A stretch of DNA of 64,000 nt from Psilocybe cubensis (lineage: Eukaryota): the NCBI GenBank assembly GCA_017499595.2, contig CM039001.1, positions 620,001-684,000 of the forward strand. The letters run 5' to 3'. This document shows, piece by piece, positions 30,029 through 55,729 of the stretch; position 1 is the first letter of the stretch, and each line of letters begins with the position of its first letter. The notes below the pieces were generated by a model. The model made no database searches. It saw only the letters and a list, made by a program, of their open reading frames with translations, and was not told the DNA's origin. Both the position numbers and the translations under genes were made by a program.

Positions 30029-31025
30029 ATGGCAATTCCTTCGAATATCAGTGGATTCAGTGTAATTCCTGTACTCTATAACTCCTCTACAACACATTAC
30101 CTATATGCCCGGTCCCATACATCAAAAGGACTTTCGAACAAAGTATTACCTGAAGGACGAACTCTTTTCCTAGTCAACCTTCCACCGGACGCGACAGAGC
30201 GAGAATTGGTATTATTCTTCAAGCATAGCGGGACAGTGGAGAAGGTCGTCTTTGATTTTGATGTGAAGGAGCTCCAAAACGAGGCCAGTGATAGTGAATC
30301 GGATGACGATGAAGAGATGGAGGGCATAGACGCCGCTGGATCAGACGAACAACCCAAAAAAAAGAAGAAATCCCAGAAAGACAAAGCGGAGGTACCAACG
30401 GTAATACCGCTACCAACAAGACCTTTACGCAAGTTTCGAAAAACTGGTTCTTCTGCCTATGTCATTTTCCTGGATACATCTTCTTTGGACCGCGCTCTTG
30501 CTTCTACCAGTAAACCCAGGACATGGCCCACATCCGACGATGAACCTTCAGGTCTTGGGCACTACCGTGCGATGTATGAAGCAGCACGCCCCCCACTAGA
30601 TGCCGTTCGTGCATACGCCGACACTTTCGTCGAGGTCTACGAATACGAGTTAGCCAAGAGCCGACAAAAATCAAAATACCGGAAGGGTGAAGCAATTGTT
30701 GACGAAGATGGGTTCACTCTGGTTACAAGAGGTGGAGCATACGGCAAGACGCTTGGAGGCGGAGTGGGTGTAGCAAGCAAAGCATTCCAACGTTCTGGAG
30801 AATCGGCCAGAAATAGACATCACAAGAAGGAAAAGAAGGAGAAGGAAGGTTTCTATGCTTTCCAGAAGGCTGAAAAGCAGCGCTCAGGTTTGGGATATTT
30901 ATCCTCTCGTCACCAACCCTCTAATCCGCTGGCATACAGGCTTGATAGAACTGAAGAGGAAATGGGAAGAAGACAAAGCGAAGGTGGAAAAACTGAAGGC
31001 GTCCAGACGGTTCAAACCCTACTGA
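30029..31025 (+). CDS. RRP7: Ribosomal RNA-processing protein 7
   Basis: N-terminal RTLFLVNLPPDAT and DEDGFTLVTR. Removing intron 30888-30939 gives FYAFQKAEKQRSGLIELKRKWEEDKAKVEKLKASRRFKPY*. Confidence 0.92.
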
Positions 31026-31374
31026 TTTGTATTTTCAATATTCGACTGTCTCTCAATCTACTATTTCCCCCTGCAGTCGCTCATTTTTAAAAGCTGGTGG
31101 ATATTATATTCTACCGCTATTGATTTAGCAATCAGATCTATGTTAGCAAGGGTACGGGTGATAGATTTTGCTTTGTTCTGACATATACACCGAAAACTTC
31201 TAGTCTGTGATCCGTATCAATTCCTTGCGTTTGGTGATGCAAGTTAAACACACACCCATCGGTATTCAATTCCTCATTTTTGCAACGTTAAAAGTTCAAC
31301 TGAAAAAATTTCAAGGGTACTAGTGCTTTTAGGTATCTATTCGTGTCGTTATTCTCCTTCACATTGAAGTCTCG

Positions 31375-33392
31375 TCAACCCAAGTAGGCAACATGCTCCT
31401 GTGAGCGCGGTTTAATATGGCAGCGGAATGGCTTCAAGTGTCTACATGATGCCATGAGTAATAATGATACCTAACCCAATCAACAACCTGACCTTATAAC
31501 ACCAGTGGACCAAGCTATGACAGGCTCTTCTGGCAATCCGTTACTGTCAAGAGGTTTCGAAATATCGAAAACGGCTAAGATGCTGGATATACTGAAAAAT
31601 AGTGACATCTCTGCGAAGTGGGCACCTAGCGGTATGTTTGAGCTCAATTCTATCTTAGCAACCCGGGCATGGCGACGGACCTGGACAAACTCTTCTTCCA
31701 AAACCAAATGCGAACTTCGTAGGGTCTTGTTGGGGTGAATTGCCTAAATGGCGGGAAGGATCGAATCGGGAAGGATCAGGATACATTTCTTTGTCGTGTG
31801 CCATAGCCCTGGGGACCCATTGACAAGTTGAAGTGCCAGGATTTTTCAAGATACACCTACCACACATTCGCGATGATTTTACTGCCTTTTGGAATGAAAT
31901 ACTCTTCATAGATGTCATCTTCCATTACCCGGTGGAATAGACCTGGGAACCTTTCAGCGTCAATATGTAATGACACTTTTGCAGGACACACCTAATGGAA
32001 CAACGGGCGCCCAACGCAAGACCTCTTTGATAATCGCTCGGATGTATGGAAGCGCGTCATAGTCATCAAATGTTGGGAGTCGATTAGGAGCAATTTTATC
32101 GATATCAGCCTGAGCTTTCTTCTGTACTTCTGGATGCATCATCATGGCAAGGAAAAAGCTCGTCAAAGCAGAAACGGTCTATCGTTGTGTAAGTGGTGCA
32201 TTTTTCCCATTTTCGATGCGTTGATAACTCACTGTATCTGCTCCACCAACATAGAGAGATGCCGCCGCCCATTTAACATTGTCGTAGGCCTGACCTTCAT
32301 CATTTCCCACATCCGAAAGGAGGTGGCGTGAGGTAAAAGACTCTACAAAGTCGCCTGTAGCCTGAATATGACTTTAACTGACGTCTCCTTAGAAATTAGA
32401 TGGATTACTCACTATTTGTTTTCTGGACCACTCGAACGGGGCCTGGTTGACTTGTGCCCAACTTTTTCCAGTCTCGTGCGCAACCTTTTTGAATCCTGCA
32501 CCAGGCATCCAGGCCGGCACAAATCTCACTGTCATAAACGCGGTCATGATTTGGACTCCTAAGGAAACGATGCGACTTGCAAAAAGGGAAGAATTCGACC
32601 CAGTATTTTCCCGGGGCATTCAATTCCGCGTTCCTTTTCAGGCCTTGATCAACTGCTCCAACAAATTCATCACCGTTCGATTCAACCTGGTATCCATACG
32701 CGACTTTCAGGATTACAGCTACTGCATTCCTAAATGCGAAGGTAGTTGAATAGGCTCTTTTTAACAAAATGGGTCAAACAATACCTTCTTATATGAGTGA
32801 AAAATGCCTCAGGGTAATCCATCAGACCTTGAAGAAGCACCTGCACCTCCCGCATCTGAATAGGTCGATAAGTCCTAGAAGCCCGTGCATTGAGACCGTC
32901 CTGTAGAAGTCGTCTCAAAGACTTGAAGGAGGGATTCGAGAATCGGGTCATGAAAATCATCGATTTCTGACCAGCCAGTTCACCAGCCATCCACATGATT
33001 GGCCTATCTGAGTAGATGGATGAGCGGGAGTCTAGGAGATCCGCTGCTGCTTTGAGTGAGTTAAGAATGATTGTTTTACTGTGGAACACTCGGAAATAAG
33101 TGACTGGGCCTGTGTATAGACACGCTCAGTCACTACATTGTCCAATGGGATATTTTAGTTTACCATAGGTTTTCGCCCAAGAAGTGAACTCAAGCCAATG
33201 ATCGGACTTCGGTAGCTGCTGTAAATTTCCCGTTATTAACCTTGGATTTGGTCCTGGTGGCAGCCTCACACCCTTGACAGCAAGGGTTGATTGACGTCCT
33301 AGCCAAAGCGTTGTGTACAGGATAAAGCCAACAAAAATTACGATGCTAGTCGTCCAGAGAAATGTTTCCACCGCAATTGTAGTATCGATCAT
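31375..33392 (-). CDS. Cytochrome P450 (CYP64-clan/CYP5144-like), copy 1
   Basis: N-terminal TM + PPGP, I-helix LYVGGADT|TVS, KEVLRW (ExxR), heme motif FGFGRRVCPG; multi-exon. Confidence 0.92.
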
Positions 33393-33471: not shown

Positions 33472-33664
33472 CTATCTCGAAACCTCCCTTCCTGATTTCT
33501 ACCACCTCATCCACTAATTCTCCTAATACTTCGCCGTTGTAATAAGCCGATCTCAGGATTTATGTATTTTTTTAGTCGATTCAAATTGCAAAAATAGCCC
33601 CGGCTTAGAGGTGGACTTCAAAATGCTGACCGTCGCGGATGTTGCACTTTGTAATTCCTGTCAT

Positions 33665-33748
33665 GGCTACCTAGCGCAATGGTAGCGCGTTTGGCTTCGA
33701 TTGCTGAATGGCACCAAAAGGTTGCAGGTTCGAGTCCTGCGGTGGTCA
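33665..33748 (+). tRNA. tRNA-Arg(UCG) with 12-nt intron
   Basis: Acceptor GGCTACC/GGTGGTC, D-arm GCGC-AATGGTA-GCGC, anticodon stem TTTGG/CCAAA with loop CT-TCG-A, intron TTGCTGAATGGC, T-arm GCAGG-TTCGAGT-CCTGC, followed by a T6 terminator. Confidence 0.95.
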
Positions 33749-33878
33749 TTTTTTCGATCCTGATACTTCCAATTCTTCGGTTGTCTACCCTTGACAACAT
33801 TCTGTCACTTATCTGAAGCGCTCCACAATGTCCGCCGTCGTATATTTTGGGATATCACGAATAATGACATGCCTGTAC

Positions 33879-35987
33879 TCATATTTCAAGGAGAACATTT
33901 TTAGGACGAGGTATGATTTGGCAATCAAAGGGCTTGAGATGGCTATATGTTTACCAGTGGATCAGGAGAGGTCGTCAATTATGAAGTAATTAATGTTATC
34001 TGACCTTGTGATACCTGTAGTCCAGGCAATGGAAGGCTCGATAGTTACTCCATTCTTGTCCAAAGGTTTTGAAATGTCGAATGCAGCTAATATGTTTGAT
34101 ATGTTCAGGAATAGCGACATCTCTGCCAGATGTGCCCCTGAGAGTATATGCAAGTCAGACCAACGCAGCGAGGATCTACCGTAATAGGGGTTTATGTGAC
34201 GCTCAAAAATATCTCACCTGGGCAAAATCTCCTCCCAAACCCGAAGACAAACTTAAAAGGATCAGCCTGGGGCGAGTCCCCCAAGTGGCGTGTAGGATCA
34301 AAGATATGGGGATTAGGATATAAATCTTCGTCGTGTGTAATTGCCCTGGCGGTGGATCAAGCTATGACAATGAAGTATTTTCTTCTAAATCTTACCATAT
34401 ATTGCCTATTACTCTAGTACCTTTGGGTACGAAATAGTTTTCGTAGATGTCATCCACCATTGCTTTATGCGGAATACCTATGTCACGTTGGTCATCCAGC
34501 TCAAAGAAATCGACATATACACGATATACATACCGAGTGGGGCCACAGGTGCCCACCGTAGAATCTCCTTGATCATCGCTCTGATATACGGAAGGGACTC
34601 GAAGTCATCGAGAGTTGGAAGTCTATCAGGTGCCACCTCGTCGACATCCTTCTGCGCTCGCTTCTGAACATCGGGATAGAGTGACATAATTAAGAAGAAT
34701 GTTGTCAGTGCAGAGACGGTCTGCATCGAGCCAGAGATTGTTGAGTTTGAGTAATAATTATACTTGACGATAACGAAGAAGTCAAAGGACTAACCGTGTC
34801 TCCACCGCCGATGTACAATGCAGCAGAACACCATTTAATTTCCTCTAATAGAGCTCGGTCTGTTGGGAGTTGTCCATCTTCTATGTGGAGATGCTTCGAG
34901 GTGAACGATTCGATGAAGTCGCCCTTCGCCTATTGATTATGTCGAGAATCAGAATAATCGAAACAGTAATCGATAGTAATGTGGCCAAACCATGTTTTCC
35001 AACGTCCATTGGAAAGGAATGCTTTCTACGCGGCTGGAAGTTTTTCCGAGCTCACGCGCCAACCTTTTGAAACCAGCACCGGGGAACCACTCTGGGAGGA
35101 ATCTTACTACAGAAACACGACGTCTTTAGTCCTGATCCAACAGAGAGCCCTAATTAAATAAGGGGCACTTACGTATTGGGAAAAATTCAACCCAGTATTT
35201 ACCAGGCACATTCATGGATGCGCTGATAGTGAATGCATCTTCCAAATACCTAACCATTCTATCGTCGTTAGATTCTACCTGGTATCCGTATGCGACTTTC
35301 ATGATGACCGCTACTGCATTCCTATAGTTCCGCGACAATTATTGAATGAAGTCACAACGTTGAAGACAACTGACCTGCGGATGTGTGCTGCAAATTCTGT
35401 CGGATTGTCTTTCAAGCCGCGAAGAAGCACCAACGTCTCTTCCATTTGAATTGGCCGGTAACTCTTAGCCGCCCTGGAGTTCAGCCCCTGCTGCAGCAGT
35501 TTCCGCATGCTTTTATGACGGGGATCAGAGAACGATGTAGAGAAAACACCATATTTTCTCTTTGCAAGTTCTCCTGACATCCAGCTGGTCGGACGCTCGG
35601 AATATATGGTCGATCGAGACTCTAGCAGGTCTATGGTTGCCTTTGCGGAGTTAAGAATTATAGTTTTATTGTTGAATACGCGGTAATAGACAATGGGACC
35701 TAGATGTCAGATAACGTTTAGCCTTCGATTCTCGAAATGACGTAGCAGGGATCAAGAAGCTCACCGTAGATTTTTGACCAGGATGTGTAAGTCAGCCATG
35801 GTTCTACCTTTGGTATCTGTGTAAGGTTACCCGCAATAAAGCTGCCGGTCGGCCCAGGAGGGAGGCGAATGCCTCTCAACCTCAGTCGATACTTCAGAAA
35901 AAGCCAGAGACAGCCATAATAAACAGCAAGCCCTAGCAGCAGAGCGCTAGGAGATATTCCCAGAGAGTTAATCCACCCGTCTTGCAT
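33879..35987 (-). CDS. Cytochrome P450 (CYP64-clan/CYP5144-like), copy 2, tandem paralog
   Basis: PPGP, LYIGGGDT|TVS, KEILRW, FGFGRRFCPG. Intron positions correspond to copy 1; ends HLKPFDCQIIPRPKNVLLEI*. Confidence 0.92.
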
Positions 35988-36071: not shown

Positions 36072-36468
36072 TAATCCACTGGCTCATGGGGAGTTTGAGT
36101 GACAAACTTCTCTGTGTGTAACTATTACCAACACTGGTCAGACTGGAGAAGCAGCTGATAGATCAAAAATAGCAAGTCTAGCAAACTTTCATGGAAGAGG
36201 GCTATCACAGCATGACACCACAACGGAGGTGTAAACGTATGACAGGGGGTTTCGTTGAATCCGTTGACAATAGTGGGAAGAAGGCCAGCGCAATACAGTA
36301 GGTGTGTGCAGCGAGATCCACCCAATGTAAGAGGGGTTTTAAAGATGTTCCACAATGTAGTTGTACTGGGAGCTCTCGCGTTGAAAACCATCGTCACAAT
36401 ATAGCAAAACAACAAGACCAAACATTGATGATCAGAGACTCGGCAGGGGACACCATAAACATCAAAAA

Positions 36469-36552
36469 TGACCACCGCAGGACTCGAACCTGCAACCTTT
36501 TGGTGCCATTCAGCAATCGAAGCCAAACGCGCTACCATTGCGCTAGGTAGCC
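36469..36552 (-). tRNA. tRNA-Arg(UCG) with 12-nt intron, identical to 33665-33748
   Basis: Exact reverse complement of the first copy, including the intron; followed by T5. Confidence 0.95.
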
Positions 36553-36799
36553 ACATTGATGTATTCTCGTATGTTGCAATCAGAGCCAAGCATATCCTCG
36601 GGCCAGTAACCAGATCCGATCGCCTGACATGATCAATTAACCCAAATAGGAAGTCGATGATGCCGAATGCTGTGGCCACGATGATTGATGATCTTCAACT
36701 CAGACGCCTGGGGTCGTCATGATATGATCTTGTCCTCTCACTCAAACCACCACCACCATAATCACAGCTTAACAACACACACCATATAGCGTCTTCAAC

Positions 36800-38246: not shown

Positions 38247-40918
38247 ATGGGGGCCTCACTCTCCGACGAGGCGTACGACGCCCTTGGGGCAGAAACTAGG
38301 GGTCATTATCTTGTTGGGATGGATCCCTGTGGTTTTATGGAAACTTTCCTACCTTGGAACTCGAATACACCCCTTTTCTACACGGAACGATGCCCAGAAC
38401 CAACCAGAATGCAATCTCTGACATCTGTGCCACCAACACAGGCGCAACAAAAGGAAAGCCACATGTATGGTAAATTTGTAAATATTTTCATACTTGTCTT
38501 TATTATGCGTCAGCTAACTGAAATCGCTGTTTTGTTGATGTAGGTTAGTGCCCTTGACAGTTGGGTTACAGATACAGACACCAAACAGAAACTCAGATTT
38601 GGACACAATGAACGTAGATGTCTCTACATATTGGGAAGATGATTTTACAGTTACCAGTTCATGCACATTCTCTCTTCAGCAAACCCATGAAGTGTTCAAG
38701 AGCGATATATCTCATGACGCTTTTGCCCACCATCTCGACGAAGGCCCCGAAATCGTTGAGATTATCGACAAAGAGAAACTTAGTCCTGTTGCTTCCTCAC
38801 CTGCCACCGGTGACTGTAATTCGGATTTGGTTGGCAATGTGGGGACATCACCGCTTTCCACTGATTCTAATGCGTCTGCTAAGCTCGACGTTGAAACACG
38901 CCAACAGTCCGCGAAACGGAGGCAACCATTTCAGAAAGCCTTCTAAAACCGGTCGAAACACAAACTCAAATCGGAAATCATATTCGCGGTCAGATCGCTG
39001 CATACGCCGGCGTTGCCTTGTCTATGGCATTTAGGACCCACTTTTTCTCGATGCTAATTCTAGGCCAGTATGCACGGTTTATACGCTGGGATCGACGTGG
39101 GGCCATTGTTACGAGGAGGTTTGATTACACTGTCAACCCTCACATCGTGTTCGAATTCTATCTCCGCTTTGGCCAACTCACCCCCCGACAGAGGGGATTT
39201 GACACTAATGTAGAACCTCTGAAGGCGGGTCTTCCTCAACGCGTCGCAAATGCCTTCAATGCATATTATCACTTGTCATGGTACCAGGGTGCCAAATACA
39301 GTCATAAATTAGATCCCTCAAATTGCATTTCTGCCTCGGATATGCTTTTCTTCCGTATTCGGATTGAGGATCGCACTCAGGGTCGCGTCGATAGCTTTAT
39401 TATCCCAGCCCCTGCCTACAAACACTCGTACGTCATTCCGTTTGCTCGTGCTTCCAGGCGATGCTTGGCGTATTTTGATGACCCCAACGCGCCAAAAATG
39501 TGTTTTCTCAAAGATTCCTGGCAAGAAGTCTCTCTACGTTCTGCTCCGGAGGCAGATATTTATCGGCGTCTTCAATCCAAAAATGTCCCAAATATAGCTT
39601 CCATGCGTCTCGGAGATGATGTTGTTGATCTCGAGACAGAGACACAGAAATGGTTCTATCTTTTATCTCACAGTGGTCGATACAAACATCTCGGGGCCAT
39701 GGTTTGCCATCGTCTTGTGATGGACACCGTTGCTCGTGATCTATCAACGTTTACTTGGTGCAAAGTCCTCCTCAAGTGTCTTGCTGATGCAATCGATGGT
39801 GTGTGCGTTGTTAATTACCATTATAACTCCTATTAGTGACCATTCATCAGCTTCCCAGGCAGCGTATAAAGCTAAAGTGCTGCATCGGGATATCAGCGCC
39901 GGCAATATCATGATAACTGTGGATGAGAAGACTCACGAATTACGCGGCATTCTTATCGACTGGGACATGTGCCTTCTGTTGAAACAACGAAACGTTGGCG
40001 TTAATCGCACTGCAAGAACTGTAAGCGTCTCTTTGACTATTTTTCTGTATTTCCTGAAAATGAGAAATAGGGCACGTGGGCATTCATTTCCGCCCGGCTT
40101 TTGAAGAGTGCAAAGTCGTCAATACCTGTCATTCACTCACTTTCGGACGACATGGAGTCTGTTTTCTGGGTCTTAGTCTATCAGATCTTTTGATATACCC
40201 GTCATGACACAAAAGATGCCGAACTTTATCGACTCTTAAACAGTCTCTTTAACGACGCTGCCACATCTGACAATACGTGGTAGGAGGAAAGGCCAAGTCG
40301 TGGATATTAAGCAGTTGTCGGAATGACATGGTCAGTAGCGATCTCACCAAATTTGCGAAACCCGAACTGCCAGAAGTCCTGCACATACTCGGTTCTGTCT
40401 TCTACGCCCCTTACGCTCTTTTAGCCAAGCAAGCTAAGAAACAAGAGCGCTAACTCTCCAAGTCAACAAAAAATGCCACCCCTACCTACCACGACGAAGA
40501 ATCCAATTCGAGCAGTGATGAAATCGACGAAATTCCTGTCAAGGCTATGAAGAATTTGGATGACCCTGACGAGAAATGGCTGTCTAAATATCTTCGTAGA
40601 GCTGCAAGAACTATGGAGCCATTAGGTGTCACACCGACTGGTTTACTTTCGCCCGACCTAAATTCTCATCCTCCAAAAAACCCTGATGAATGGAGACCGG
40701 CACTCCCTGAACACTCTGGCGTGGATTTTTACCACATGTGGTTTGTAAAAAATCAGAATGACACCGAATTGGCGCAATCAAGACATGTCTCTAAAATCAC
40801 ATCTTCCATGTTCAATCGCATGAATGGTCTACCTTGCCGCTCCGGAAGCGCCAAGCGCCCTTTCGAAGACACGGAGGAGGATAATAAGGCGTTAAAAAAA
40901 CATCGCCCAGTTTCTTGA
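38247..40918 (+). pseudogene. Fungal-type protein kinase (FunK1/Pkinase_fungal) pseudogene
   Basis: Motifs RGQIAAY, RFIRWDR, FLKDSW, HRDISAGNI, IDWD and DDMESVFWV are present. Relative to the adjacent paralog it has a ~29-nt deletion near 38608, a frameshift near 38900-38950, an in-frame TGA at 40191, a 1-nt deletion near 40275 and a TAA near 40451. Confidence 0.85.
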
Positions 40919-41352
40919 CAATGTTACGTATCGAGGAGTCATTTTATCTTGCATATGTTAGCTTCTTATATTTCATCTTTAAATTCATCTTGCAATTGGG
41001 ATTTTGATTTGCTTCTGACCGTGCGGAGCGCTGGGGTCACGGTCGGGGATATTGAAGTAGACACTTTATAAATGAATTGTAAACGCTCTTAATTTGATTG
41101 CATTTATCATCGCATATGTACATTGTGTCCGGCAAAAAATTTGGAATGTAAAATGACAAGCAGATAGACCCGATGCAAAGTGACAAATGACATCTTCGGA
41201 AGTTGATCATGAAGAGGTGACTCCTGAGCGTGGGAACGAATAAATTTGGTATGCCTTCACGCACGCGGGACTATTAAAGTTGAACACAAACTATTGTCAT
41301 CATATATCATAGACCTCTGGTATTCCGACACTTTTACCAATTAGTGCATTCT

Positions 41353-44048
41353 ATGGGCCACCAAGTTGACGATGGAACGTATGATGCTCTTGGGCAGCTT
41401 TTGAAAGGCAAATATCTTGTTGGGATGATGCCAGAACGCTTTTTGGAGGAGTTCCTATCATGGAACGCAGATACACCACTGAACTACAAGGAGCAACAAC
41501 CAAGTGCAAACAGAGTACAATGCATCATATCAGAGTCATCAACGCACCAGCAGAATACAGAGGGCCGTACGTTTAGTAAACATGTAAGCATTTCCAGTGC
41601 AGATCTTATGTGTAGAGCTAACTGGTTTGGGTTGATAAATAGGTCTGCGCCCTTGATGGTTGGGTCACAGGTACCGATACAAAACAACAACTTAGATTTG
41701 GACATTTTACGCGTCCTGACGATGCCTGCGGTTCCATGAACGTTGAGATATCCACATACTGGGAAGAAGACTTTCCGAGCATCGCTTCCGGCTCCTGTAA
41801 CTTTGCTCTGCACCAGACTCATGGAGTGTTCAAGTCCGATATCTCACACGATGCATTCGCCCACCCATTTGATGAAGGCACTATGGCCGCTGAAGATTCT
41901 GAGTTTGTGGTCAGAAAAATCGAGATTTTCAGCTCTGGCGAAAGTAACGAAACACACGATGCAAGTATATATGGCAATGTGGTTTCTGCGAAGGAAAAGA
42001 AAGATGAGCAAATATCACAGGAAGATGCAGTACTCGATGGGTCACCGGTAGTCAAGCTCAAAAACGACCTTTCGAATTCTATCTCCAATATTGAAATAGA
42101 TACCGAGCCTGCAATTCGTACACGGGGACAGATTGCTGCATACGCTGGTGCTACCATGTCGATGGCCTTCAGGACCCACTTTTTCTCCATGATGATCCTT
42201 GGCCATTATGCACGATTCATACACTGGGATCGATCTGGTGCTGTTGTAACGAGCAGGTTTGATTACACCAAAAATCCTTACATCATCTTCGAATTTTACC
42301 TACGCTATGGCCAACTCACGCCTCGGCAGAGGGGGTTCGATACCAATGTGCAACCCATCAAAGATGGTTTACCCCCGCACGTCGCCAACGCATTCAATAA
42401 ATATCATCGCAAATCATGGTACGAAGGTGCAAAATTTGAACATAAAACCCACCCTTCCAATCACATTCCCATCTCGCAGACGCAATTTTTTCGCATCAAA
42501 ATTGAGGACCGGACCCAAGGCCGTGTTGAAACCTTCATTATTCCACCTCCCATCTATAAAAAGTCGTCGCTCATGCCATTTGGGCGAGCCTCCAGACGTT
42601 CTCTGGCATATCTCGATGACGCTGTCGCACCGAAGATGTGCTTCTTCAAGGATTCGTGGCATGATATCTCCGAGCGTAGTGCCCCAGAGGCAGATATCTA
42701 CCGACTTCTCCAGTCCAAAAACGTGCCAAATATCGCATCCATGCGTCTGGGGGACGACGTAGAAGGTTCGGAAACTAAAACGCAGAGATGGGTTTCCGCC
42801 TTCGCTCGTAGTGGTCAGCATAAACGTATCGGAACTATGGTTTGCCATCGCCTTATTATGGACACTGTTGCTCGAGACTTATCAACCTTCACCTGGTGCA
42901 AAGTTCTCCTTAAATGTCTCGCTGATGCAGTCGATGGTAAGTGTGCATTAGCTTTCTGCGATAAAAACACTACTTTAAACATTTGCCAGCTGCCCAGGAA
43001 GCATATAAAGTCGGTGTGTTACACCGGGATATAAGCGCAGGCAATATCATGATTACCATGGACGATAAGACACACGAATTGCGCGGCATCCTCATTGACT
43101 GGGATATGTGTCTTCTTCATAATCAACGAAACTCCAATATCAATCGTAAAGCAAGAACAGTAAGAATTTGGATGTTTCTTATATATATATATATTGTCTA
43201 ATAGATATTACTTGTAGGGAACTTGGGCATTCATGTCCGCCCGACTTCTGTCTAGCACAAACGCCTCGAAGCCTGTTATTCATTCCCTATCTGACGACAT
43301 GGAGAGCTTTTTCTGGGTCCTCTTTTATCAAGTCCTGCTATACACGCGTCACAGCAAATCAGGCGAAGAACTTGAACAGCTCCTGCAAAGTCTCTTCGAT
43401 GATGCAGCGAAAGGCGATAATGGGATGGTCGGGGGCCAAGTGAAGATGTGGGCTTTGCAAATTGCCTGTAACCCTAGCTCGATCAGGCGCTTCACAAAGT
43501 TTGATAGAGTTGAGCTGGAAAAGGTTCTCCACGAGCTCGGATATCTGTTTAACTCCCCTTACGTACTTTCTGAGCAAGAAGACGAAGAACGAAAAGCCCA
43601 AAACTCCAAGGTTAAGGTTGTCGAAACCGAGGTCAGCAAACCTGCGTTCTCGGATGATGAGGATGACCCCGACGACGACGATGATGATGATGCCGAAGAT
43701 GATGAAGATTCCAATAAAGACGACGAAGACGACAACGACAACGAAAGTGAGGAAGAATCAGACGATCCTGATGAAGAAAATCTTTCTCTACAAGGGCATG
43801 TCGGAAATCCCAGCCCTATACGGAAGGATCTAAATGATCCAAACGAAAAGTTGTTGTCCGATTATCTGCGCCAAATTGCTCACTCGATGGAGCCTTGGGG
43901 TGTCACTCCAGCTGGTCTACTTTCGCCCAAGCAAAATTCTCGCCCTCCGAAAAATCCTGCCAGATGGAGGCGTGCACTCCCAAAACACCATGAAGCGGAC
44001 TTCTACCCCATGCGTCTTGCGACGGATGCAAATGTAAAGAGTGGGTAG
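41353..44048 (+). CDS. Fungal-type protein kinase (FunK1/Pkinase_fungal)
   Basis: RGQIAAY, ARFIHWDRSG, FFKDSW, HRDISAGNI, IDWD, RT|GTWAFMSARLL, DDMESFFWV; three introns; acidic C-terminal tract. Confidence 0.9.
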
Positions 44049-45581: not shown

Positions 45582-47643
45582 ATGCCGATAAGCAAGAAGA
45601 TGGTGTTCTCGGAGGACGAGGAGTCGGGGTCTGACAGTGGTGAGTGATGTGCTATTCCTGACACTGCCAACGCCCGTGGACGAGTGGGTGGCACTACCCA
45701 ATTTATATGCGCATGGGAATTTCTTCTTTTTGATGATGTGCTAACGTTAACTTTTTAATACTCGCCTCTTCCACCCTTTGGACCTGTTTGTCTTTGGTTC
45801 CATTCGATTCTTCGTGACCGCTCTTCCGTGCTTCCCTTCCTCCCTGCACTGACACCGCAATGCCTCCTCGTACTCGTCGCTCTGCCGCCGTCGCTGCTGC
45901 TGCCTTGGTCGCAGACATGCAGATGGAGTCTGAACCAGAAGAAGAAGAAGAAGAAGAAGACGAAGAAGAGGAGGAGGAGCAAGTCGACATCGAGAATGAC
46001 GACGAGGACGGAGAAGGCGAAGAAGGAGATGAAGACGAAGATGCCGAGAGTGAAGAGCAGGACTCTGTATGTTTCGTCTTTGTGGGCTCCCTGGATGGTG
46101 CCTTCTTGATGATTGACTGTCATGGTTGTTCTTACACAGGATGCTGAAGAGGAGGAAGAGGAAGAAGAAGAAGAGCCAGTAGTACCCCAGCCTCGGCTAA
46201 AGATCACACTTAAGCTCCCCGCGAACAACACCTCCTCCAACAGTGGTGGGACCGCCACACCTGACGACCAGGAAAATGACTATGTATTCACGCGTACCCC
46301 CAGGCGGCGCGCTAAAAGTACGCATATAACCATGTATTCCTATTACACGCACGAAGCTGACTGGAAATCGTGGATGCAGCTAAAGTCATACAAGATATCG
46401 ACGTCGAATCCGAGGACCCAACGTCCAACTCCGACTCGGAAGAGAAAGAACAGTCTGCGCCTTCGCGCTCCACGGGCACCCCCTCAGGCACTGCTGGCCC
46501 CAGTACAAAGCCGATGACGACGCGCCAGGCTGTCTTGGCGAGCGTAGTTGACCCCTCCCATGTTTCTTTGAGTAAGTGTGGCCGGATGGACTCATTCGAT
46601 CGTGTCCGAACCTCTAATCATTTGTGTACTCTACAGATGAAGGTACCAGGAGCAAGAAACAGCCACTCAACGAGACAGAACTCGCTCTGCGAAGGGAGGA
46701 GACTGCCAGAAAGCGGAAGAATCTCAGCGAGAAGAAGTTGCAGGATGAAAAGGTTCGCGTTTATTTCTTGCATTCCTCTGTCATTCCATCCATACGTGTC
46801 TACACGCGCATCAATATCTCCTCTGTGAAAGAATACGACTAACCCATCTACATCCTACAGGCAGAAACTATCAACCGTCTGCTCAAAAAGCAATCGCGGC
46901 CCAAAAATAAACGCAACAACACGGGCGACGATCGCTCACCAATGCCCGGCTCTGGCGCGCGCACGCCCAAAGTCAAAACAGCCGCCGCCGCCGCATCAAA
47001 GAATGGAAACGGAGAGGATGGAGAGGATGCCGAGGGTGATGAAGATGAGGAGGATGCGATGGAAATCGTGCCGGAGCCTGTGGAAGAGGTCAAGCCCGTC
47101 ATGTATCGCTGGGTATCGACGATCCGCGCGTTGCCCCCGGTGGAGCCTATTACCGCTGCACCTGCAAACGGTGGAGTCACCGCGGATGGTGAAGGTGGGA
47201 TGAAACATGAGGATGTAGATATGCAGGTGGATAAAGAAGCAGATGGGAAGCAGATGGTTGTGAAGAAGGAGGTGCAAGTGCCTATCATGCGAATCACGTT
47301 CTCCATCCCTGAGCTCGCCCTCGCTCGTCATCCACCGCCACCCACTCAACCCAATACCGTGCTTCCAACCTCTGAAACTATCAACCCTTCAAACTCTACC
47401 GCAATGCAAGTCGACGACGACAACAGCGTCAGCAAACCCTCTGAAGAAGAGCTGCAACGGCAAGCACGCGAAAAAGAGCGGGCGGAGAAAGAAGCAAGGG
47501 CGCGTGGGCCGGGTGTGTGCGCTGTGGACGGGTGTGGACTGCCGCGCAAGTACCGGCACCCGGGGGACTGGACGGTCGGCGCTTGTGGAATGGGGCATTT
47601 GAAAGAAGTTGGGAGGCTGGTGGAGAGGAGGGCGGTTGTTTGA
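45582..47643 (+). CDS. IES2: INO80 complex subunit Ies2/INO80B (PAPA-1 domain)
   Basis: MTTRQ motif, ALRREETARKRKNLSEKKLQDEK|AETINRLLKKQ, YRWVS and a C-terminal Cys/His motif. The start is uncertain: 45582 (spliced) or 45860. Confidence 0.82.
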
Positions 47644-48333
47644 GCTTTGTGCTGTGGTGTTGAGGTTGAGATTGGGTGTGGGTATAGCTGCTATTTTGTA
47701 TATAATGCTCAATTGTAAGTGCTTTGTTTCTTTTGATGGGTTTATGTAGAAAACTGATGGTTTCTAATAGGTATTTGTTGTATGTACTGGATTTTTGGTT
47801 AATTGATATTGGGTATGCCTTCTCCGTGGCTTTATTTTCGAGTCTTCAAGTACCATTTCTATTTGGTTTTTTGCTCAAGGGTTTGAGTCTTTACTTTACT
47901 TTGACAAAGAACATTGTAAGCAATCACTTTACAGTCACTAAGTTTGAGTTTTGCAAACTGAAATTCATCATCCTAGCTTATTACGTAGGGATTGCACAAT
48001 TTCGATTATATTCATGCTAAACCCGCTCCTACCGGTGGTTGAGTCTTAGATTTATGTTTGTCCCAACTCATTTCGTTGCGACGGCAGGTAAACAGGACTA
48101 GGATGATTTTAACCTGGACATTTGGCCAAGTAAACTACAAGTGTCGTTGGCTCACGTGTACTTCTAGCACATTCTCTCACGTTGAACTTCGTGTCTTCCG
48201 AGCGAGTCAGATTCATAAAGCGACTACGCTTCCGTTTCTGTTCCCCATTTCCTCACTACGACCACCCTCTTGCCACGCACCTGGCCCTATATCATCACGG
48301 TGGAAAAGAGAGCATTGTTGGTGAAAGGGCAGC

Positions 48334-49721
48334 ATGGACTGCACCATATGCCTTGACACTATCGAGAACGGGAAAGCGCGCTGTTTGCCTTGTGGTACGT
48401 CTACCTCACTTGCGCATATACCTACGTTTCTCTGCCCTGCGAAAGGAGTTTTTTTATATACGCTTATTTTTTACCTTTTTTGAACTTCTATAGGTCATAT
48501 TAACTGCGAAGATTGTGTTCTGTCGCTTTGGAAAAAGAACAAGACGTTTTGGGGCTTTCGATGTCCAGAGTGTCGAGAGGAGGTTCGGGGACCACGTACG
48601 TTTTTTGCCTTTGTATTATGTATTTATTGTGTATTCATTGACTACATTGGATAATATGACCTCTAGAATTGTCCGCGGAGAGTATACGTAAAGTGTACTT
48701 ACACCCTAAAATGGACCCGTCAGCCCCTTCCTCCTCGTCAAGGACCACCCACGACAGTAACAATTCTATAACAGAGTCTCAAATTAATCTCAAACTCGCC
48801 ACCGCCCATAAAGAACGCGATGCCGCGCTAGAGCAGCTTGCCTTCCTGCGTGACCAGCAGGCGTACCTTGATAATGCGCTGAAGCAGGCACTCGACAATC
48901 TCGATGCGCAGATGCACTACTACCAGGCGGAGCTCGCGTGTCTGCGACAGGTGGAGGCGAGGAGACGCGTTGAGGAGGAGGGGAGGCGGCGGGAGGTTGA
49001 GGAGGTGCTGGGAGATTTGAGGTGTGTGGTTAGGGTTCTGCAAGATGAGAATGCGGTGCTCAAGAATGATATTGGGGTGCTTCTTCGGGAGCAGGAGAAG
49101 CAGGAGAAAGAGCAGATTGGGAATAGGGACGCGAAGAGTGTGAAAGGAGAGGTGCCTTTTTCGAATAAGAAAGCTGAAGATGATGGTATACCTGAGGGTG
49201 CTAGTGCTTGTCACTCTGGAGGATCCTGCTGTATCGAACGTGATTTTGTGGACGGGGCCCCAGATACATCGACAACTGTCGTAGCTGTTTGTCAGAGTCC
49301 AAACACCACCAACACTGTCACAAGCGACTCTGACACACAACTCCTGGTAACCAACTCTGCGTTGGATTCCGACTCAGGATTATCTGCTATTATTATCGGT
49401 ACTTTTTCTGATGCAGATGCAACCGCTACCAATCTAAATGTCGACGTCACTCTCACTAATGACAACATCACCATCGCTTCCGCTCCAAGGATCAATACCA
49501 CCACCTCCTCCTCCTCTACTGCACAGAGAGCATTAAGGAGGGGTACCGATATCCGCTTCACAGGGTTCTCGTACCCCAAGAAGCACGTAGTCCCAGACTG
49601 CGTTCCTGAACGCAACGGGGTCCACCGATTCCTTGGGACGGGGAGTAATACCCACTACACGCGCTTCAGCTGCAGTTACTGCGGCTTTATTTGCAAAGAG
49701 CGCAAGCCGCAATACAGTTAA
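48334..49721 (+). CDS. RING-HC + coiled-coil protein with C-terminal Cys/His module (paralog 1)
   Basis: Spliced MDCTICLDTIENGKARCLPC|GHINCEDC...RCPECR, then the 48669-49721 ORF. Confidence 0.88.
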
Positions 49722-50326
49722 TTTAAAGAGAGAAAGGTGTGTGTGTTTGCTTGTTGTTCTCGTGAGCGTAATTCTGACATTTGTTTTGTTGCTGGAAGAA
49801 CAAGAACATTGTTTGCGTTGTCCTGCTTTTAAATTTTATGTATTTGTTTGTGAAGTGTTTAATGTACGAGTATGTTGCCTGCCCTGGAGGCGATTGACTA
49901 GCAGAAGATATATTGTGAGTTATTTTTCCCATTTTTTTCTTCATTTCTCGAGAATTTGCGATTGATGGCCTTTGCAGAAAGGAATAATGATGTATTGATT
50001 TTTTTTATTCAAGGGAATTTTCAAGTTGTTGCAGAAGCCTATGGCATCGTCCGATTCTAAGCTCGGTATATCGAATAATTGTGTTCCCTAGTACGTAGTA
50101 GTGCGTCGTCTCAGGCCTCATGCGTATCAAAATAACCCTGCGACTCTATCTATCTGAAATGGAAGTCCTATCACCTCTTGACGTAAGAATAGTCATGGGG
50201 TGGATTATACATATATAAGTAAGAATATGCAAGAAATGCACGTGTAGGGATCTCAGCGCTTCTTCTGCACTGCCCTTCACTATCTCTCAAGCATCATTTC
50301 GATTGCAGTGCTGCGTTGAACACAGT

Positions 50327-51267
50327 ATGGACTGTAGCGTGTGTCTCGATGCCATTGAAGATGGAGATGGTCGTTGCCTGCCCTGTGGTATGCTCACGAC
50401 TGTGCGTTTCGGCTCAGCTGATCATAGACCTACATGATACGTATCGTTCAGGCCATATCTTTTGTAAATGCTGCCTGCAATCACATCGAAATCATAATGC
50501 AACACTGTCTGGTGGGTTCCTGTGTCCGCAATGTCGCTCTGAAATTGTTCCAAAAGGTACGTCCTTGATTTCACCCATGCGCTCTCGGTTCTACAGTTCC
50601 AACTATGTTGAATATTATCATACACATAGGAGATTCTGATGATACCATCAGAAAGGTTTTCTTGAGCCTTGAGTCAAACTCCGAGCAGTCCATAGACATA
50701 ACGGAGATCGAGCAATTGAAGGCACTTCTGAAAAAAACACAGCAGGAAAGGGATGATGCTCGATTAAACCTTAACACTGTTGGAAATCAGCACTCCATAG
50801 ACACAACGGAGATCGAGCATTTGAAGGCACTTCTGGAAAAAACACAGCAGGAAAGGGATGATGCTCGATTAAACCTCAACACTGTTCGCAATCAGCACTC
50901 CGGTCCATGCCATGAAGAAATTGATCGCCTTCAGACGCTTTTGAACAGAATTAGGAATAAAAGGGACGTACTTCATGCACAATTAAAAAAAGCGCTCGTG
51001 GACAACCAGACTATGACACATGGCCATGAAAAACTACAAGCATTAGGTAGGACGCAGGTAAAAGAGCGCGACGATCAAATAACTGCCTTGAAACGAGCGG
51101 AGAAAGCGTCCCGGGCTATGATCCACGTGCTGGAAGAAGAGAACAGAGTACAGCAGAAGGAGATCGTCTCCTTATCTAAGTATGCAAATAGGACGATAAA
51201 TACTTTAGAGAAACAAAACATGCGGCTGCAGGAGCTCCTCGCCAGGGCGAAGCGAGTTAAAGCCTAG
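50327..51267 (+). CDS. RING-HC + coiled-coil protein (paralog 2)
   Basis: MDCSVCLDAIEDGDGRCLPC|GHIFCKCC...LCPQCR|GDSDDTIRKVFL, then coiled coil. Confidence 0.85.
50689..50898 (+). repeat. 105-bp tandem duplication inside the coiled coil of RING paralog 2
   Basis: SIDITEIEQLKALLKKTQQERDDARLNLNTVGNQH / SIDTTEIEHLKALLEKTQQERDDARLNLNTVRNQH. Confidence 0.95.
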
Positions 51268-51759
51268 TGCTATGGGGAGAAAAGCAATCAGTACTAGTCT
51301 GGGTACCCATGAAGGATCAAACAATCATTCTCTGTCAAAGCATAAGCCACAAAGCTCGAAGTCGAATGCCAGCGCTACTGTCCTCCCTTCCGTATGAATA
51401 CAGTATTCAATGGATACCAAGGTCCCTCATTGATGCTAAATGGCTATGATCATCAGTGACGGTCCAGCTAGTATTATAGGCGGCCACCGGCCTCTCAGTA
51501 AATCCGAGGGCTGAAATATATATACAAATATTAGTCCTAGCTGTAGAGTATCATTATTTCTCTGAATATCGTTTCTTCATTCGGTTCTCGAAGGATCGAG
51601 CAAAAGCCCTTAAAAGCTCAATTTCGTCCGTGTTCATGGCACGTGTATTTTTAGTACCATTCCCACGAACCGAAGTAACAAAAGGCCATCGTCTCGCTCC
51701 CATCTCTCACTACGCCGTCTGGTGGGAGGTAAGTACATTGCCTCAGCTCCGCGTGCGCG

Positions 51760-53104
51760 ATGGACTGCACAATATGTCTTGACATCATGGACCAAACTGG
51801 CTATTGTCTGCCTTGCGGTATGCCCGCTTTCAATTTGCCTCGCTTTCCTGGGAGAGAGCTGTAGTTAACAATCGGCTATTGTCATTACAGGCCATATATT
51901 CTGCCAACGCTGTCTAGAGGAACATTGGGAACTCAATTCTACAGTCAACCGAACTCTGTTATGTCCTACCTGTCGTAGTGAAGTCCATAGCCCCAGTACG
52001 TCGCGATAATCTAAGATATATACTGCGTCCTCTTCCATGTCGTATTAAATAATCGACCTTTCTGCATTTCATTTGTTTAACGGAAAACTCTTTCTAAACC
52101 TATCAGACATCAAGTACTGATTGAATTTAACGCCAGGGGCGTCTGTGGATTGTATTAGGAAAGTATTCATTAGTTCAACCCAATCGCCTTCGTCGGGAGA
52201 AGAAATGCGCCAACTTCGTGAGACGTTGGCCAAGACATGCGACGAGAAGGATGCAATCTTTCGGGACCTGCTCTCCACACGCGATTCCCAAGCCCAAGTA
52301 GAACAACTGCTCAGGGATGCCTTGGACGACGCGGAACTCAAGGAAAGGCAAATGCAAGATCTTAAACATCAATTACAACAAGCTCAAGAGGCGCTCAACC
52401 GTGCTTCCTTAGATTCAAAGACAAGCGACGCTCTCTCACAGCTAGAGATCAAGAATCTGCAAGAGGAAAATGAACTACAGAAGGCCGACATCGAACTACT
52501 TGAAGATGAAAATGAAGGCCTCAAGAGCGTGATTGAAGACTATGAGAAAGAGATTAAAGTCCAGCAGAATCAGATCGGTATCCTTTACATGAAAGCAACT
52601 GCATCAGAGAGGGATATCGAGGCGCTGCAAGCAACGATCCAAATCAAGAAAGAGTTCGACACCAGAGCAGTTCAAGATAGTTTCAGTGATGGACGAGATA
52701 GCTATGATACCCGTTCGGGGCAACATCCAATCATCAACCCTCCTGGCACATCTGCTTCGCCTACTCCCACAACTACTTCAAGAAGCTCCTCAGCGACAGC
52801 TAAATCTGAAGATAGCACAAGCGCTCACGGTTCAGTTTCAAATTCCCAGGATGGACTCTCACCTCCCGCTGAGTCATCTTCTGGTACGAGAACGTTGAGA
52901 AGAGGAGATGCGATTCAGTACGAAGGGTTTTCCTATCCCAAAGAACATGCGGTCCCTGATTGCGTCCCGGCGCGCAAGGGACGTCACCAATTTTCTGGTA
53001 CTGGAAGTAACGCCTATTATACACACTTCAGCTGCAAACATTGCCACTTCAAATGCAAGGAACCCAAACCAAAGTCCAAGAAAGGTGTTGAACTACTTCG
53101 CTGA
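51760..53104 (+). CDS. RING-HC + coiled-coil protein with C-terminal Cys/His module (paralog 3)
   Basis: MDCTICLDIMDQTGYCLPC|GHIFCQRC...LCPTCR, then SVDCIRKVFI, coiled coil, S/T linker and the Cys/His tail. Confidence 0.88.
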
Positions 53105-53579
53105 ACCATTACGCTTGCTAACGCCTAAATATTTTAACATTAGAAACCGGTATTGCCCCATCAGCAATGTAGCTGTTTAACTGCGGATGTGACGTAGGCA
53201 CGGATCTTCCTCGAGGAGTGAACAGCCCTGTGCATCGAGGTATATGTATCTATCCTTATATACTATAGTGTCAAGCCAAAACACTTTTTTAAAAGTCCTC
53301 GATTTCCCCTTTCATATGATTACATATCATTTTTACCCATTGTTCTGCTTTTCGAACAACCATGAGGTTGACTTGAGGCCGTGTTGGCATCATTATAGTC
53401 ATGATGTTACCCACAACTTCGTTGCTCGATCTGACGGGGTGTGCCGGTACAGTGGGAAAGCTCATTGACTCGATTCCTTTATCTGGGCCCTTGAAATACG
53501 AAGTATGAGTTGCCACTCATTCAAATTGCCACCATCGTTGTCTGGATATTCCAACTGCTCTTTGTCCTTCGTATCTATC

Positions 53580-54702
53580 ATGCAATGTACTATATGTCTA
53601 GAGACCATACAAGACGCGGGTCTCTGCTTACCCTGCGGTACGTGTTTGAAAGTTGATCGATTCCTCTATTGACCACCCCTTTACCGATAGGCCATATCTT
53701 TTGTGAATCCTGTGTTAAGAGTCACACAGATAATAATCAAAATTATGAAGGAAAAATCCTATGCCCGACTTGCCGCAGTCAAACCTTTCCAAGTATGTAA
53801 ATGGTTGCGTTTAAGGTGGTTCCACTTTAATATTGAATTTTTTTAGTATTGTCCGCAGAAAGCATTAGACAAGTGTACCTCAACTCATCAACCCAATCTG
53901 CTTCCTACTCAGAAAATATTGAGAGCCTTAAAAAACTCCTGGAGGTAACCATCGGGGAGAAGGATACTGCACTAGTCGAGCTGGCCACCTTCCGGGAGCG
54001 CGAAGCAACGTGGAGTAGACTCCTCAAGGAAGCAATCAATCGCAACGAAAGGAAGAACAACGCTACTTTAGATCTCAAATTACAAATCGATGTTCTACAG
54101 CGTAAATGTGAGGAATATGCTTCTCGGGATGCGGTTGCACAGCGTGTTGTTAAAAACCTGCAAGCGGTGAATGCATCGCAAGCTAAAAAAATCGAGCAGC
54201 TCAATCAGGAGTCGGATACCTTGAAAAATCTGATGAAGGACATTCAAGACGAGAATGAGAAGCGGAAGGAAGAACTGGAGGATCTTGTCACCGCTCAGTC
54301 AAGGGTAATTGAGAGGATGAAAAGGGACGTTGAGAAATCACAGACAAGTCCACAAAGTATGAAGCCAAACTCGGGTTCCAGAACTGGTCACAAAGTTCAG
54401 ATATCCAGAAATATTGGACAAGTACCTCGTGGACCACGTATATCCGGTGATATTTTTCCTGCAGGAAGCTCTGGCAACTCAGGAGCAGGTAAGCATATGG
54501 TTTAATACCTATGGGAGATATCCAGCCTAACCAAACACTAGACTTGCAAACGATACCGGAATTCAAGAAACGTGATGGGTGGCTGATGATTCCAGACGAA
54601 GTGGAAGCACAAGGCCGTTCTTGGCTGTTAGAGCACTGGTTGACAACACAAGACGACGCTTTGCCCGAGAAAGGAGAACCCATACAAGTGGAACAGGTCT
54701 GA
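53580..54702 (+). CDS. RING-HC + coiled-coil protein (paralog 4)
   Basis: MQCTICLETIQDAGLCLPC|GHIFCESC...LCPTCR, then SAESIRQVYL and coiled coil. A phase-compatible third intron (~54489-54541) adds DLQTIPEFKKRDGW...EQV*; unspliced, the ORF stops at 54505. Confidence 0.82.
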
Positions 54703-55326
54703 GATGAAGGGTGTCAAAGTTATTCAGCCATATCTGCCATATCATAGTCATTTAGTTTGCATGTATATACATAAACAACAAAAGCGTTTGCACACTTTGT
54801 AGAAATGGGGTCAATTTGAGAGATTAAGTGCTCCTAGAACGTACAGGCGAAACAATTGTTGCAGAGTTTACCGGATGTCTAGATCTGTGAGTTAGAGTGA
54901 CCTTGCACAGAAGTATCCATTTAAAGCAACAGATCCCTGACAGTGATTGCGTGGTGGGGTTAGAGAGCGGAGGTTGGAAAAGAGTTCAAAGGCGTTTCAG
55001 CCTCTTAGCCCAGTGGAACGGTTAGATTTGAAGGAAAGAATCCAAAGGGATGCGCACGGGCCATAATGCTGTAAGAATGAAAAGATGTTGATATCATGTG
55101 ATCACTCTCAAAGGTCGTCGGAAAAAAATAACTATACCTGCCCTGCTTTGTTCTTTGCTTCGAAAATCTTAGGGTGCTCAAAAATGAGTCCAAATGGTGA
55201 TAAAAACGATATAAAGGCGCTTCATTTATTCAAACTTCGATATTTGCATTTCAGTACATAAAGCAAACTCTCGATTGGTGACCATTGGTGACAATCAATT
55301 CTCGCCTATATCCAACTTCGACGCTT

Positions 55327-55729
55327 CTACGATTGGCCGTAACAATAGGCCTGGTTGTTCTGAAGTTGAATCTGTCCAGGATGGAAAAAGTCTTCCTTGC
55401 AACAACCAGAGGACTGTACACCAGGAGGGCAAACTTGATTGGGTTGAGATGCCAAAGGGACACCTGTTAAAGGGGGAAGGGCAAGTAAGCATATATTTGT
55501 GAACAGTGGAACATGAGTAAAAAGTTAGAATGCTACACTTACACCCTAACCCCGTTCCAGGTACTACCTGGGGCCATGACTGCCATGTCATATAGGTGCA
55601 GCACGATGGAATGAAATTGAGATTGCATGTAATGCGCTTCTCAAGCTCCGGCAACGGGTTGGCACTCGCAAACGACGCGAGGAGGCCAAGAGCGACGAAG
55701 ATAGTAGACTTTGCTATGCTGGTGCGCAT
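55327..55729 (-). CDS. Small secreted 8-Cys hydrophobin-like protein
   Basis: Removing intron 55464-55542 gives MRTSIAKSTIFVALGLLASFASANPLPELEKRITCNLNFIPSCCTYMTWQSWPQVVPGTGLGCVPLASQPNQVCPPGVQSSGCCKEDFFHPGQIQLQNNQAYCYGQS*. It has a signal peptide and a C-CC-C-C-CC-C pattern. Confidence 0.85.

Follow-up and report, generated by a model that had tools for sequence, protein, structure and literature searches.

An old tandem array of RING ubiquitin ligase-like genes in Psilocybe cubensis and its putative terminal zinc-ribbon domain shared among Agaricales

TRIM/RBCC proteins are defined by the succession of a RING, a B-box and a coiled coil, as laid out in PMC3503706 and PMC10445537, and the fungal TRIMs dealt with in the former are MATH-containing, TRIM37-like proteins. 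In mushroom-forming fungi, an expansion of RING, F-box and BTB genes together with their developmental expression has been described (10.1101/349894; PMC10282164). Here we analyze a 64,000-nucleotide stretch of Psilocybe cubensis DNA (contig CM039001.1 of assembly GCA_017499595.2, positions 620,001 to 684,000 of the forward strand; hereafter 'the window', numbered from its first letter), for which an initial annotation had proposed four head-to-tail RING-coiled-coil genes of TRIM-like architecture with exchangeable C-termini, a lineage-expanded, fast-evolving family possibly acting in defence. Our analysis demonstrated that the four genes (paralogs 1 to 4; Table 1) are real, that the array is mostly expressed and that its RING-coil genes belong to a general kind already known. 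It is probably an old tandem cluster of an Agaricales family of single-chain RING ubiquitin ligases which undergoes birth-and-death evolution and functions in regulatory proteolysis.

As proposed, each of the four genes starts with M-x-C-x2-C (positions 48334, 50327, 51760 and 53580), for which the plus strand of the window holds no other match, and all four share two introns at matching positions, the first within the Gly codon of C-G-H and the second just past the RING, both of phase 1. Every spliced model is open, every intron is bounded by GT..AG, and the shared post-RING motifs were recovered unchanged in all four spliced models. This combination of RING and introns is present in four genes of the real window and in none in each of 1113 Markov-resampled windows. 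Contigs of four of the five listed sequencing runs were compared with the window, X1 and X2 (designated 'RNA?' and belonging to one study) and X3 and X5 (DNA-like). In both X1 and X2, the two RING-flanking introns are skipped in each of paralogs 1, 3 and 4, i.e. six of the eight predicted; X3 and X5 read through, and no intron joint of the array is present in either. The third intron of paralog 3 is skipped in both X1 and X2 and that of paralog 4 in X1 only. As the RING exons of paralog 2 are without contig cover, which says nothing on its expression, the splicing of this gene is a prediction. The joint of the first intron of paralog 1 is given as 48395-48496 in the RNA-like runs, with one letter in between, which fits an intron at 48395-48493 plus a synonymous strain difference. 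The RING and intron part of the earlier gene models held, while a short fourth exon of paralog 3 had been missed. Paralog 1 also has two introns in its 3' untranslated region (UTR), the first of which starts 15 bases past the stop; these could have an effect on transcript stability. In the public gene models, P0001, P0004 and P0041 are without a RING, and P0040 joins paralogs 1 and 2 through their long exons.

The assignment as RING E3-like genes is borne out at the level of the predicted proteins, as all eight C3HC4 ligands occur in four out of four spliced models with the spacing C-x2-C...C-x-H-x2-C-x2-C...C-x2-C. Ile/Val and Leu, which we take to be E2-contact residues, flank the second RING Cys in all four paralogs. 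The RING is closed by CPxCR in each of them, so that the Arg after the last CxxC is present, a residue with a 'linchpin' role in RING ligases (PMC8586995). Exon 2 alone passes the PF00097 cut-off (21 bits) in paralogs 3 (21.7 bits) and 4 (24.3 bits), and full-length relatives score above Pfam RING cut-offs, e.g. P0017 for zf-RING_2 (31.1 versus 27.3 bits). Structural modeling of P0017, a full-length relative from Galerina, yielded a RING, a strand (residues 59-61), a helix of 89 residues (71-159) which starts 25 residues past the RING, a disordered region (165-245) and a folded terminal domain with a predicted local distance difference test (pLDDT) value of about 95. By a crude score, heptad-like windows are found in all four paralogs. 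The coiled coils are, as had been noted, divergent, with identities of 25-35% among paralogs 1-4, the RINGs being 48-58% identical; that of paralog 2 contains an in-frame tandem duplication (Table 1). Two relatives from Pholiota conissans, P0033 and P0042, have His as fifth ligand (RING-H2) and keep the strand, the coil and the terminal module.

The array resembles TRIM/RBCC proteins in its N-terminal C3HC4 RING, its coiled coil (in TRIM/RBCC proteins an antiparallel dimer), a C-terminal part which putatively binds the target, and the clustering of the genes. In contrast, the B-box is absent and there is no evidence of domain exchange. The initial annotation had already noted that no B-box is visible, and we found no more than two Cys/His within the 30 residues past the last RING Cys of each paralog and no B-box family at E<=0.01 in eight full-length relatives. 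Since the B-box is missing, the proteins are not TRIMs. Similarly, Pfam searches of the exons in the window and of full-length relatives matched neither PRY-SPRY, MATH, NHL nor any other catalogued terminal domain. Profile matches over positions 3-159 include COP1 (E 9e-8) and RNF135 (E 4e-5), and the full-model structure ties at Z about 6 with COP1, HEI10 and TRIM RINGs. COP1, RNF135/RIPLET and HEI10 likewise combine a RING without B-box and a long helix, but their terminal parts, WD40 in COP1, a disordered tail in HEI10 and PRY-SPRY in RNF135, are unlike the Cys-His-Cys-Cys (CHCC) domain of the array. The likeness seen to these ligases is that of RING plus helix. Because COP1, RNF135, HEI10 and TRIM RINGs are all matched, non-immune ligases among them, the RING-coil layout says nothing specific on immunity. 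By analogy, the family could work like the B-box-less RNF135/RIPLET.

The element which sets the array apart is the Cys/His module at the C-terminus of paralogs 1 and 3, which, judged by its alignment, is one conserved domain of 57 amino acids (aa). A profile built from seven sequences retrieved 38 proteins at E<=0.001 among 1.84 billion, and a second search 26; three of the 38 (P0006, P0031, P0032) were discarded as repeat artefacts. The alignment of 32 sequences reveals the consensus C-x7/8-H-x5-G-[ST]-N-x7-C-x2-C with invariant P, V, H, G, N, C, C and E and a first C that is at least 90% conserved. The named carriers are Psilocybe (three species), Galerina, Flammula, Phlegmacium, Gymnopilus, Pholiota, Coprinopsis, Tephrocybe, Sphagnurus and Lyophyllum, all of them gilled mushrooms of the Agaricales. 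A strong module match is present in 41 of 49 stored proteins (with a profile that was itself built from many of them) and lies at most 41 aa from the C-terminus in 37 of these 41; of the 41, nine have a full RING and three half a RING.

The AlphaFold2 model of the paralog 3 module (mean pLDDT 87.3) is a small, mainly beta domain. Pfam gave no family for the window copy and none that matched more than three of the 32 members (best E 0.0026), and the six matches among PDB sequences were not significant (best E 0.55). Foldseek with the model yielded nothing at E<=0.001 in the PDB and viral sets, VIA-align against 48,161 chains gave 11 matches at Z>=2 and none at Z>=5 (best Z 2.4; weak matching of this sort is no proof of a new fold), and the best Atlas match (0.83) belonged to no family and lay under the recognition bar. 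The closest likeness is to small zinc ribbons of the NrdR and phage type and is confined to a core of about 30 residues: about 28-30 residues can be superposed on phage proteins of small size, among them one with a zinc-ribbon annotation (root mean square deviation (rmsd) 1.0-1.2, probability 0.97-0.98, E 0.11-0.15, not significant), and the match to NrdR is weak (Z 2.1, rmsd 2.1, 37 aligned). The N-terminal half of the module, on the other hand, has no match. A GRF finger (zf-GRF, PF06839), which was considered as well, was not supported, with no Pfam hit in the 32 members and an hhalign probability of 0.05 against a template of two sequences only; it should be considered that small domains score low in fold searches. 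P0030 from Phlyctochytrium planicorne and P0039 have in common with the module only the short G[ST]N...CxxC core, which they carry within repeated C-x-H...G[ST]N...CxxC units (five by pattern in P0030; hhalign probability 76%). This suggests that the core is part of a wider, uncatalogued zinc-ribbon repeat family; searching this P. cubensis genome with P0030 gave no match.

As for the expanded RING genes of Agaricomycetes, the array has in common with them the expansion in the mushroom lineage and the presumed role as ubiquitin-ligase specificity factors. In the available main text of 10.1101/349894 and PMC10282164, however, these genes are treated as a class, and neither a subfamily nor a terminal zinc-ribbon domain is named. 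The top three Atlas matches for P0017 are Basidiomycota RING clusters (0.90-0.92), and among the titles and abstract openings searched, with few subscription papers, none dealt with this subfamily or with a part of RING ligases in the allorecognition of basidiomycetes. The RING expansion of mushrooms is already known, and the new element is the terminal zinc-ribbon domain, which matches no catalogued family.

Exchangeable C-termini, as initially envisaged, are not borne out, since only one conserved terminal domain was found and this one is common across the Agaricales. Modular domain swaps are likewise not supported, as the module tree follows the N-terminal trees in placing the Psilocybe group (paralogs 1 and 3, dispersed copies, P0002, P0005 and P0007) together and apart from a group formed by copies on contig C12 of the P. 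cubensis genome and Galerina; the relatives were gathered mostly via the module, and distant members could carry other tails. That the C-termini differ within the array holds true for paralogs 1 and 3, which have the module, and for paralog 2, which has none; in paralog 4, the Trp-rich exon is spliced in X1, but its long frame is allele-specific. In the X1 contig of this gene (one contig, depth 13), 34 extra letters after 54571 lead to a stop two codons on, whereas X3 and X5 agree with the window at the last exon, and three strain differences listed further along the tail all change the residue. The tail has a single match in the genome, which is itself, and no Pfam family at E<=1. Neither protein nor DNA profiles detected a module remnant behind paralogs 2 and 4. 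In paralog 2, one extra letter is found within 50847-51194 in X1 and X2 and none in X3 and X5; as the RNA-like runs carry this additional coding letter, a frameshift allele is implied. A splice donor follows 25-42 bases past the last module Cys in paralogs 1 and 3, where it is seen in joints, and a predicted GT in three dispersed copies. The third intron of paralog 4 is of phase 1, as is that of paralog 3, and its last exon may therefore be the ordinary terminal exon of the family, left after the loss of linker and module. In a tree rooted on module-bearing proteins of the Galerina type, paralogs 1-4 form a 97/95 clade with the module-bearing C12 copy outside, which implies that paralogs 2 and 4 have lost the module.

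The genome searched comprises 46.6 Mb in 21 contigs. In agreement with a lineage-expanded family, 13 genes with the same first intron were counted in the window (four) and in nine 10-kb loci taken from elsewhere in it (nine), and these are not one-to-one orthologs of a housekeeping ligase. The module matches at seven places, i.e. paralogs 1 and 3, C1, C4:3529k, C7:2510k and two on C12, and RING exon 2 at no fewer than 12 or 13 (at least 12 and at least 13 with two queries). Paralog 3 groups with three dispersed copies (100/98), and a single clade of the four tandem genes was rejected in the approximately unbiased (AU) test (p-AU 5e-5), indicating that the dispersed copies derive from the paralog 3 lineage; paralog 2 has a long branch in the trees. 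The share of synonymous differences among paralogs 1-4 amounts to 0.66-1.02 for the RING and 0.73-0.87 for the coil and is thus saturated or nearly so, and the array is therefore, on this sequence measure, old and not a recent burst. The description as fast-evolving has to be qualified by this age and by a ratio of non-synonymous to synonymous rates (dN/dS) that is below 1 wherever measurable. Among the paralogs, dN/dS reached 0.07-0.26 in the RING, 0.24-0.57 in the coil and 0.08-0.49 in the module where dS was estimable, values with dS >1 being rough. The best matches of paralogs 3 and 1, P0002 and P0005, both stem from 8186-base contigs, which suggests that the tandem pair is common to another sample or species.

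Several dispersed loci have features of their own. The two closest copies (L024, C4:3523-3533k; L025, C1:2700-2710k) reside in a duplicated block that is about 86-88% identical over several kb and takes in a long frame next to both of them. In the assembly sequence of the C1 copy, the reading frame is apparently broken where the coil gives way to the module, and the paralogous C4 frame matches the UniRef protein P0003 over coil and tail. A second RING-coil cluster (L021-L022, C12:1142-1155k) contains one module-bearing copy with a degenerate RING, which the public models P0021 and P0048 fuse to the next gene. On C7 (L017-L020, C7:684-797k), retroelement frames and an F-box-like frame surround RING-coil genes that share this first intron and are without the module.

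We propose an ancestral layout of RING, a short strand packing on the RING, a long helix, a disordered linker and the terminal CHCC zinc-ribbon domain. The RING, with its ligands and Arg, would recruit E2~ubiquitin, the helix would dimerise as a coiled coil and so pair two RINGs, and the zinc ribbon on its flexible tether would, from its position and conservation, select the target. As the module is only mildly basic, a protein is put somewhat ahead of nucleic acid or chromatin as the likely class of target. Paralogs 2 and 4 may be tail-less partners which pair with paralogs 1 and 3 via the coiled coil and so tune them, or else copies on which selection is relaxed. Regulatory proteolysis would be the likeliest role, in analogy to that suggested in the development of mushrooms for their expanded families of RING, F-box and BTB genes. 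Some observations do not sit easily with this proposal. No RING is visible in 29 of the 41 module-bearing proteins, which we read as gene calls missing short exons, as in this array. With module-less RINGs as outgroup, AU tests did not reject a position of paralogs 2 and 4 outside the module group (p-AU 0.29; 0.22), and loss of the module rather than a swap is for this reason favoured but not statistically proven. The tail of paralog 4 has a GC content of 52% compared to 35-45% in nearby UTR stretches and is thus more coding-like than read-through UTR would be. Finally, of the strain differences listed, the five that fall in the RING exon and early coil of paralog 4 all replace a residue, if conservatively, as do two of six in paralogs 1 and 3; these counts are low and come from an incomplete list, and relaxed or diversifying selection could underlie the difference.

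Nucleic acid as target would be central if the proteins were chromatin-directed ligases like HEI10/RNF212 or TRAIP, with the coil oligomerising on chromosomes and a basic zinc ribbon binding DNA or RNA during meiosis or repair in fruiting bodies. HEI10 (9ges_A, Z 5.9, rmsd 11.3, 144 aligned) is among the equal matches of the full model, language-model features give TRAIP-like clusters scores of 0.88 and 0.86 (<0.9, leads only), the Pholiota members have the RING-H2 His, and the module is mildly basic and aromatic (5-9 K+R, 4-5 D+E and 6-8 aromatics in 56-57 aa). However, these matches depend on a generic RING with a long helix and the structure ties with many RING proteins, the module has no GRF similarity in the above comparison, and core meiotic genes do not usually gain and lose copies at such a rate; we consider this explanation unlikely. 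A slightly smaller chance is given to the TRIM-like surveillance initially suggested, in which RING-coil scaffolds swap C-terminal recognition domains for antiviral, antibacterial or non-self defence. Against it stands the one module observed, whose tree is congruent with that of the N-termini and which is under purifying selection, with no paralog dN/dS >1 and the alternative tail of paralog 4 being single-copy and not fixed; neither our sequence analyses nor the literature searched provided evidence of a defence role. Turnover of copy number, with tandem clusters in the window, at C12 and, probably, in Galerina as well, the apparently disrupted alleles or copies (paralogs 2 and 4 in X1/X2, C1) and the residue-changing differences of paralog 4 would fit it, and one RING-coil ligase that lacks a B-box, RNF135/RIPLET, does act against viruses (PMC10445537). 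It is improbable that the CHCC domain is an undescribed sensor fold, possibly for nucleic acid or foreign protein, and that fungi have in this family a convergent counterpart of the RIPLET/TRIM type, its activity set by tail-less paralogs and segregating broken alleles as coiled-coil decoys, which, if true, would mean a ubiquitin-based immune layer in basidiomycetes. Equally improbable are mainly structural adaptors or decaying duplicates without ligase role and with tails of neutral debris, as the possible frameshift and early-stop alleles of paralogs 2 and 4, the C1 frame break and the long paralog 2 branch are opposed by the eight ligands and Arg kept in all four genes despite saturated synonymous sites, by the splicing of paralogs 1, 3 and 4, and by the counterparts of paralogs 1 and 3 on contigs of equal size in another sample.

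The neighbour of the array on one side is a PAPA-1/Ies2-like gene, whose match (E 4e-4) stays below the cut-off; on the other side lies a small Cys-rich frame, possibly a small secreted protein with introns, which is followed by a cytochrome P450 gene. Further genes and repeats of the window are listed in Table 1.

Table 1. Features of the RING-coil array and its surroundings in the window.
Feature	Position	Strand	Details
Paralog 1	48334..49721	+	Spliced model; exons 48334-48394, 48494-48595, 48667-49721; 405 aa; RING, strand, coiled coil, Ser/Thr-rich linker, zinc-ribbon module
Paralog 2	50327..51267	+	Spliced model; exons 50327-50387, 50452-50556, 50630-51267; 267 aa; RING, strand, coiled coil, no tail
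Paralog 3	51760..53172	+	Spliced model; exons 51760-51817, 51891-51995, 52137-53084, 53144-53172; 379 aa; RING, strand, coiled coil, linker, zinc-ribbon module
Paralog 4	53580..54702	+	Spliced model; exons 53580-53637, 53691-53792, 53847-54488, 54542-54702; 320 aa; RING, strand, coiled coil, short linker, no module
C-terminal module of paralog 1	49524..49718	+	Putative ligands C366, H374, C390, C393; profile E 9e-29 in the window; alignments
C-terminal module of paralog 3	52880..53080	+	Putative ligands C330, H338, C354, C357
Tandem duplication in paralog 2 coiled coil	50684..50901	+	In-frame, 105 bp (35 aa); 2.1 copies, 93% matches
Last exon of paralog 4	54542..54702	+	53-codon Trp-containing frame, specific to the window allele
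3'-UTR introns of paralog 1	49737-49798, 49915-49977	+	GT..AG joints in X1, X2; absent from X3, X5
PAPA-1/Ies2-like gene	46843-47643	+	Spliced 3' UTR, joint 47714-47771
Small Cys-rich frame	55295-55729	-	Signal-peptide-like start, several Cys, no Pfam match
Cytochrome P450 gene	57-59 kb	-	
RRM protein gene	19306-21538	+	
Rrp7 gene	30011-31090	+	
Fungal protein kinase genes	38895-44048	+	Two adjoining genes (PF17667)
tRNA-Ser(CGA) pair	33664-33753, 36464-36553	+, -	90 nt, 100% complementary inverted, 2710 nt apart
Direct repeats near tRNA-Ser(CGA) pair	32575-32732, 35167-35324		Diverged; spacing 2592 nt

The family does not overturn a known principle. Mushroom genomes hold many RING genes whose targets are unassigned, and the terminal domain defines one subfamily among them. 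As public models leave out the two short exons that encode the RING or run adjacent genes together, RING counts for mushroom genomes are probably too low. The module itself is small, conserved and foldable and could be expressed alone as bait, which would make the search for the targets of this subfamily a direct one.

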